From the NCBI RefSeq assembly GCF_058153355.1, contig NZ_CM177019.1: 64,000 nt of DNA; one strand, given 5' to 3'. The notes beneath the pieces are model-generated. The model was given only the letters and a program-made list of their open reading frames with translations. It made no database searches and was not told the origin of the DNA. Positions within the stretch are counted from its first letter, which is position 1, and every line of letters begins with the position of its first letter. Both the position numbers and the translations under genes were made by a program. Below are positions 39,958-41,341 of the stretch, piece by piece.

Positions 39958-41341
39958 TCAACCTGCCACACTTCCCCACACCAGTTGCCCTTTATGGAAC
40001 GTTGCGGTACATGGCGAAATACGCGCCACCGCCTCGGCGGAACAGGAGGCGTCCACCAGCACAAAGCTGGCGTCATCCTGCGCTTTTGGCCAAACACGCT
40101 CGCCTTTTTCATTGAGCGGCAATACATCGCCAGTGGCTAAAAACAGCGAGCGGGATAAATTCTGTTCGTTAGGGCGAATTATAGAGCTGCGCGTACAGAT
40201 TGGCTTTTTCCAGCATGTCGCCCAGGCCGTAAGGCGACCAGTGGTCGATAACGCTGTCAGTTCCGGTCATCACTTTTACGCCTTTGTCGTGCAACTGTTT
40301 AAGCGGCATATGCAGCGTGCCAATCGGCACCGTCGAGGCGATCGAGATTTGCTGCGCCGCCATCCGGTTCGCCAGTTCATCTACCTGTTGCTCATTGAGC
40401 GTTGCCAGCGCAAAGGCGTGGCTGATAGTCAGTTTGCCTTTTAATTGCGGCGTTTTTTCCACTGTTTCAACCATATAATTGATGGCCGCCACGCCTGCCG
40501 GAGTGGTTTCATGCAGATGAATATCGACGCCTTTGTCGTAGTCCAGCGCAATCTGGAACATGGTGTCGAGGGATTTTTCCATCGCGCCATCGACACTGGT
40601 TGGGTCCAGCCCGCCAACGTAATGCGCGCCTGCCTGCATTGCTTCACGCATCAAGGGTTCCGATTTCGACAGCAGCAAACCGTGCTGCGGGAAGGCGACG
40701 ATTTCACAATCGAAGCCCGCCTGACGTCGCGCCAGCACCGCCTGCAAATTTTGCAGATTTTTCAGGCCGGAAACCGGTTCGATATTGCAGTGACTGCGGG
40801 CAATGGTGGTGCCTTTCGACTGCAATAGTTCGATCAGTTTTTCCGCCCGCTCCTGCGTGTACGGTTGTAACTCCGGCAGCATTTTCTGCTCGAGTTTGAT
40901 CATGTCCTGGATGGTGGTGCCTGCCGGGCGATTGAGCGAGCGCCAAGGCCCGCCGTAAAAGGTTTTGTCGAGATGAATATGCATGTCGCGGGTGGTGGGC
41001 AGCATCAGCTTACCGCCAGCGTCATAGTGCGGCAGCGTGGCGTCCGGATGCTGCTTGTTCTCGCGCAGGGTAACAATTTTGCCGTTCTGAATCTCTACGG
41101 TCTGGCGCGCCGTGCGGGTCTGCACCGCCATGCCATTTTCATAGTCAAAACCGGTTTCCAGCAGCACGTTATCGAGATAGTAATGCGGGTCAGTGATTTT
41201 CATGGTGTTATTCGCGTCGCAGTGGGTGGTGCCAGAGACTGCCGCATGGGCGAGCGGCACAGAAGTACCAAACAGCGCGGCGGCGGTGACCATCTTACCG
41301 CTCTGGCTCAAAAACTCACGACGGCTATTGTTTTCTTTCAT
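39958..41341 (-). pseudogene. yahJ: amidohydrolase-family deaminase with Tat-type signal, frameshifted near the 3' end
   Basis: 390-aa ORF (MKENNSRREFLSQSG...) stops at 40169; a coding-like continuation (EQNLSRSLFLATGDVLPLNEKGERVWPKAQDD...SVAG) follows in the +1 frame to ~39958; total about 455 aa, versus the ~460 aa I recall for YahJ. Confidence 0.55.

Follow-up and report, generated by a model that had tools for sequence, protein, structure and literature searches.

A one-base insertion near the 3′ end of yahJ probably created a recent frameshift pseudogene in a lineage of Escherichia coli

In a 64,000-nucleotide stretch of E. coli DNA (contig NZ_CM177019.1 of assembly GCF_058153355.1; hereafter, the window), the gene yahJ carries one base more than its intact relatives, and its reading frame ends prematurely. 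We consider, with a probability of about 0.85, that yahJ is here a genuine and recent pseudogene that arose by the insertion of one A (minus strand) at codon 388, and that its function has been lost. The lesion is an ordinary, lineage-specific frameshift pseudogene of a well-known kind; it is the allele itself that is new.

The preliminary description of this DNA had proposed that an amidohydrolase ORF with a Tat-type signal stops at 40169 after 390 codons, and the translation agreed with this. The truncated ORF (41341..40169, minus strand) consists of ancestral codons 1-387 followed by Asn-Ser-Pro and a premature TAA, and the 390-aa product ends in ...NLYAQLYNSP. After Tyr387, ancestral codon 388 is changed by the insertion from ATT (Ile) to AAT (Asn), and the frame then runs through TCG and CCC into TAA. 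A frameshift ahead of the 3′ end of yahJ, which had also been suspected, was confirmed by DNA alignment with K-12 and 2017-02-2CC, in which the window shows a single extra base (CTCTATAATTCG versus CTCTAT-ATTCG); yahJ likewise has one extra base relative to EC581. The alignment to intact orthologues that had been recommended for locating the indel placed it at 40179..40180, where the minus strand reads AA (TT on the plus strand) and all compared orthologues have a single base. A coding continuation in the +1 frame was present as described, its length being 73 codons (40179..39961) and not the approximately 62 that had been estimated. These displaced codons (39961..40179, minus strand) correspond to ancestral residues 388-460, now out of frame. 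The translation of this neighbouring frame reads IIRPNEQNLSRS...GQLVWGSVAG, its last residues being ...IIRPNEQNLSRSLFLATGDVLPLNEKGERVWPKAQDDASFVLVDASCSAEAVARISPCTATFHKGQLVWGSVAG, and it terminates at the ancestral TGA stop codon (39958..39960, minus strand).

Removal of one base yields a yahJ of 1383 nt and 460 codons, which equals that of K-12, 2017-02-2CC and EC581 in length, and the expectation that the two parts would sum to nearly 460 residues proved right (387 + 73 = 460, the K-12 length). The repaired YahJ is identical to K-12 YahJ at 72 of the last 73 residues. The locus thus combines an indel that is not a multiple of three, a premature stop and homology that is carried on in another frame, as is required of a frameshift pseudogene. 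Because the displaced frame fits almost perfectly the conserved C-terminus of thousands of orthologues, the out-of-frame match is far beyond chance.

To place the 390-aa ORF within its family, about 5.8 billion proteins were searched with the repaired YahJ as the query, and the orthologues cover 98-100% of the query. Full-length orthologues have 455-467 residues, from Escherichia (including E. albertii) to Aeromonas, the genera in between being Citrobacter, Kluyvera, Klebsiella, Raoultella, Serratia, Xenorhabdus, Cedecea, Erwinia and Pragia. The window ORF, at 390 aa, lies outside the group's range of approximately 455-467 aa with an in-frame C-terminus. Orthologues that end naturally at the equivalent of 40169, which had been named as the observation that would speak against a frameshift, were not found among the 120 matches listed, so that the frameshift reading stands. 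Some E. coli YahJ entries are shorter (414-434 aa), and we considered whether they represent natural C-terminal truncations; this was rejected, as their C-termini are intact and their gaps are internal and in frame. When 15 and 31 sequences were aligned, few parts of YahJ proved as well conserved as the C-terminal segment (W417, P418, D422, A424-S425-F426, and D430 through P443). From Escherichia to Aeromonas, the C-terminal block ASFVLVDASCSAEAVARISPR hardly varies, and Ile388 and Arg389 are also conserved positions.

The age of the lesion was approached through dN/dS, calculated between the window yahJ and three intact alleles. The displaced C-terminal 73 codons show 8-13 synonymous and 3 non-synonymous differences, with a dN/dS of 0.06-0.11; the value for the intact N-terminal 387 codons is 0.04-0.07. 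Judged by these ratios, nearly all of the divergence of the displaced segment accumulated while purifying selection was acting on it, and because this signature is still visible, we place the frameshift in the recent past. Three lineage-specific substitutions are clustered within 5 nt of the displaced segment (CCG AGA to CCA TGT; 40009..40012, minus strand); they result in R444C, the sole amino-acid difference in the dead segment. The other 30 orthologues in the alignment retain Arg444, and the best match to the stretch carrying R444C among complete E. coli genomes was 95.1%. The cluster can be read as the onset of drift after inactivation, although a single event of this kind cannot prove it.

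We determined how widely the insertion occurs by using an 81-nt query centred on the insertion site against 5,426 complete E. coli genomes. The yahJ site was found in 3,256 of them, and the insertion in none of the 5,426 (the best match was 98.8%, that is, 80/81 with one gap, and none reached 99%). Among GTDB species representatives, the pattern with or without the extra base gave a single match, in a MAG labelled Pseudocitrobacter, which is without the insertion, and the insertion allele, sought as an exact pattern, had 0 matches in the metagenome contigs scanned. The allele was recovered from Logan contig SRR28786219_320 (3,035 bp), which is 100% identical to window 39339..42373, extra base included, and the exact 390-aa YahJ is encoded on two Logan contigs. 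A look-up of the exact YahI protein led to NCBI assembly GCA_043012465.1, whose contig DAXYJU010000159.1 (2,980 bp) carries the insertion motif and agrees with window 39370..42349 at every position (100% identity). The annotation of this contig has no protein between yahI and the ASCH gene, as would be expected if yahJ had been regarded as a pseudogene by the annotators.

The truncated ORF still matches the Pfam models Amidohydro_3 (PF07969; 63.9 bits, cut-off 29.7) and Amidohydro_1 (PF01979; 31.4 bits, cut-off 25), the Amidohydro_3 match reaching residue 438 in intact YahJ versus 381 in the truncated form. Codons 1-33 (41243..41341, minus strand), MKENNSRREFLSQSGKMVTAAALFGTSVPLAHA, read as a Tat signal peptide with the S/T-R-R-x-F-L-K-type motif, hydrophobic stretch and AxA cleavage site (SRREFLS...AAALFGTSVPLAHA) that predict export, and a near-identical signal peptide of K-12-type YahJ is included in a list of Tat substrates as a protein of unknown function (PMC7549933). 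The closest solved homologues are the AtzC-type N-isopropylammelide isopropylaminohydrolase 6nbo (E = 2e-43) and, at 2e-16, the cytosine deaminase CodA. Because 6nbo aligns with YahJ residues 107 to 454, the lost segment is part of the same fold. The invariant residues H121, H123, H275, E278, H308 and D362, which we take to be metal or catalytic ligands as in CodA/AtzC-type amidohydrolases, all precede the break. The small beta-sandwich domain of CodA-type enzymes is completed by the pairing of C-terminal with N-terminal strands. An AlphaFold2 model of the repaired YahJ, built from a 31-sequence alignment, was too poor to be of use (mean pLDDT 62, C-terminus below 50), and the structural role that we assign to the lost segment is therefore based on homology to the solved relatives.

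The one A inserted (minus strand) at ancestral codon 388 leads translation into Asn-Ser-Pro-stop and removes the last 73 of 460 residues. The short product retains the Tat signal and all of the presumed metal and catalytic residues; we propose that it would misfold, be rejected by Tat quality control and then be degraded, and that the function would be lost. Misfolding is the most likely outcome because the lost segment belongs to the same fold in AtzC and cytosine-deaminase structures, and since Tat substrates must fold before they are exported, we infer that truncated YahJ would not be exported and would be degraded. The loss of activity of the 390-aa protein is, on this analysis, likewise most likely.

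One could envision that the extra base is an error of the sequencing or assembly consensus and that the real yahJ is intact. Single-base indels are the commonest assembly error, and the window spans IS elements, which suggests that it derives from a long-read or hybrid assembly. Against this, the insertion converts A to AA at a site with no long homopolymer, and the non-indel lesions described below (the yahD nonsense codon and an IS insertion) show that gene decay in the window is real. Furthermore, the two matching contigs with the identical insertion both stop at the IS elements that flank the segment, as is typical of short-read-type assemblies, whereas the window reads through these elements; differently made assemblies therefore agree on the extra base, with the reservation that SRR28786219 and GCA_043012465.1 may share the isolate, or even the read set, with the window. 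On the basis of these assembled contigs, we regard an assembly error as unlikely, and an intact yahJ behind a faulty consensus as highly improbable. We assign an equally low likelihood to the idea that the 390-aa protein is a functional short form with a dispensable C-terminus. The position of all presumed metal-binding and catalytic residues ahead of residue 388 would permit such a form, as would the Pfam matches that remain significant after truncation. However, 0 of the 120 listed orthologues end near residue 390, the lost segment stands out in the family for its conservation and can be aligned with the solved homologue right to its end, and C-terminal strands are generally known to pair with N-terminal ones in CodA-type enzymes.

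A further alternative accepts the insertion and holds that yahJ is hypomorphic rather than dead, with part of the ribosomes slipping +1 on peptidyl-tRNAPro at the new stop. The sequence of the new termination context is CCC_UAA_C (Pro390-stop; 40168..40174, minus strand), the mRNA reading UCG CCC UAA CGA ACA G with the stop two codons past the insertion. A +1 slip from CCC to CCU would be followed by AAC GAA CAG AAU, which encodes the ancestral N-E-Q-N, and would give a 460-aa YahJ that differs at I388N and R389S only (predicted junction peptide ...LYNSPNEQNLSR). The site thus has, in sequence, what is expected of programmed frameshifting, namely, a shift-prone P-site codon next to a stop and a +1 frame that is the ancestral YahJ C-terminus. 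As a stop, UAA is stronger than UGA and is recognized by both release factors, which argues against efficient slippage, and neither a Shine-Dalgarno-like nor any other stimulatory element is seen in the sequence upstream of the yahJ CCC_UAA. The two altered residues, moreover, occupy conserved positions. Shifting of +1 at CCC-stop sites is known in E. coli and in phages: CCC_UGA is an especially shift-prone “shifty stop” in E. coli, generally at not more than 2%, and CCC_UAA serves programmed +1 frameshifting in some phages (PMC3082878). The yield expected for yahJ is at most about 1-2%, and probably less. The frameshift site is absent from the 5,426 complete E. coli genomes and from the listed orthologues of other genera, and because it is not conserved, we consider it accidental rather than programmed. 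For the same reason, the assignment of yahJ to the programmed +1 frameshift genes was tried and rejected. Given that the site is accidental and has no visible stimulator, any rescue should be small. Leaky rescue that leaves yahJ hypomorphic is in our opinion improbable, and it is still less probable that slippage restores near-wild-type 460-aa YahJ at a low but physiologically relevant level. If it did, yahJ would illustrate how translational recoding can buffer a new frameshift mutation in nature, and the CCC_UAA coincidence is in any case a small natural test case for such buffering. The reading that we favour remains that of a recently inactivated yahJ.

The pseudogene lies directly downstream of its intact operon partner yahI (41351..42301, minus strand), a member of the carbamate kinase family, in the order fdrA-yahG-yahI-yahJ as annotated in E. 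coli genomes. Genes upstream of yahJ match the Pfam families AllH, AllF_N and AllG, names that derive from the oxamic transcarbamylase AllFGH (PMC11326118). Judging from these matches, the yah cluster may be paralogous to the AllFGH carbamoyl-transfer/carbamate-kinase module; the yah paralogues are not discussed in the allFGH paper. An insertion of approximately 1.57 kb (42339-43908) that carries an IS110-family IS621 transposase (ORF 42571-43551) is located between yahI and yahG, where it replaces 46 bp present in 2017-02-2CC. IS621 is found at the same yahI-yahG intergenic site in several other E. coli strains, and the insertion may be polar on yahI-yahJ expression.

The level of divergence is not uniform along the window. 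Identity to E. coli chromosomes is 99.0% in the part that includes mhp-lac-cyn-cod (1-20000), and 34221-36898 matches strain 2017-02-2CC at 99.1%, whereas for the yah segment (~39368-51000) even the best complete E. coli genomes reach only ~95-96.7%. The yahJ gene itself is 96.4% identical to that of the closest complete genome, 2017-02-2CC. This pattern of identity suggests that the yah allele is divergent or recombined in this E. coli lineage. Accessory genes were also observed at two places. An autoinducer-2-type ABC transporter operon and the ASCH gene (32085-36521) lie between yahJ and yahK, where K-12 is without the operon and has a 75-nt gene remnant. Between mhpR and lacI (6644-7597), there is a match to OvrA (an OI-19-encoded virulence regulator of AraC/DJ-1 type) together with an MBL-fold hydrolase; this islet is accessory, occurs likewise in strain 24A16CRGN010, and is absent from K-12.

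The window contains other inactivating lesions. In lacZ (8839-11911), the loss of 2 bp just after 9019 (CAATTTGCC to CAATGCC) causes a frameshift at about codon 61, and all that is left is an ORF of 968 aa that begins at an internal ATG (9005). Three sequencing runs (SRR8656992, SRR31441161 and SRR28786219) contain this same ORF, and the strain is, to judge from its lacZ, probably Lac-negative. In yahD (47779-48384, minus strand), which encodes an ankyrin-repeat protein of 201 aa in other strains, codon 73 is changed from TTA to the nonsense codon TAA (48166-48168), which splits the gene into ORFs of 72 and 81 aa; the 72-aa product is recorded on three contigs. Downstream of yahJ, an IS66-family element of 2,469 bp (36899-39367), whose transposase is annotated elsewhere as ISCro1 family, interrupts the ASCH-domain gene, where it has produced a target duplication of 8 bp, and has left a remnant ORF of 98 aa (39364-39660) versus 136 aa. 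The co-occurrence of the lacZ, yahD and ASCH lesions makes the yahJ frameshift one of several inactivating events, and this E. coli lineage appears to be losing accessory functions.

With respect to the function of YahJ, only Tat-substrate lists and one mild virulence phenotype were found in the literature. The latter comes from an extra-intestinal pathogenic strain, in which deletion of yahJ was reported to lower fitness mildly, with a competitive index of 0.70 in mouse co-infection (PMC7549933). The practical consequence of the frameshift concerns annotation, in which yahJ of the present strain should appear as a pseudogene rather than as an amidohydrolase of 390 aa, and beyond this it has little significance. 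Together with the lesions in lacZ, yahD and the ASCH gene, it marks a lineage that is shedding accessory metabolic genes, and it could serve as a lineage marker.

The window allele resembles K-12 yahJ (b0324; WP_000665120.1) in its place in the yahI-yahJ locus, in the 460-aa frame that is obtained after repair, and in its Tat signal and amidohydrolase domains, the two alleles being ~94% identical in DNA. It differs from K-12 YahJ by the additional base pair at codon 388, the length of 390 aa, and R444C in the dead part. The positions of the HxH, H, H and D motifs of AtzC (6nbo, 2qt3) and CodA (1k6w) are kept in YahJ; unlike these enzymes, YahJ has a Tat signal. With the CCC-stop +1 frameshift sites described previously (PMC3082878), yahJ shares a P-site CCC followed by a stop and a +1 frame that leads into a long, meaningful ORF. 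In contrast to the programmed sites, that of yahJ is a recent mutation in a host gene, is unconserved, has no visible stimulator, and uses UAA. Finally, the presence of several independent lesions and IS insertions within 64 kb, lacZ included, is similar to the gene decay of host-adapted Escherichia and Shigella, a comparison that rests here on one 64-kb window.
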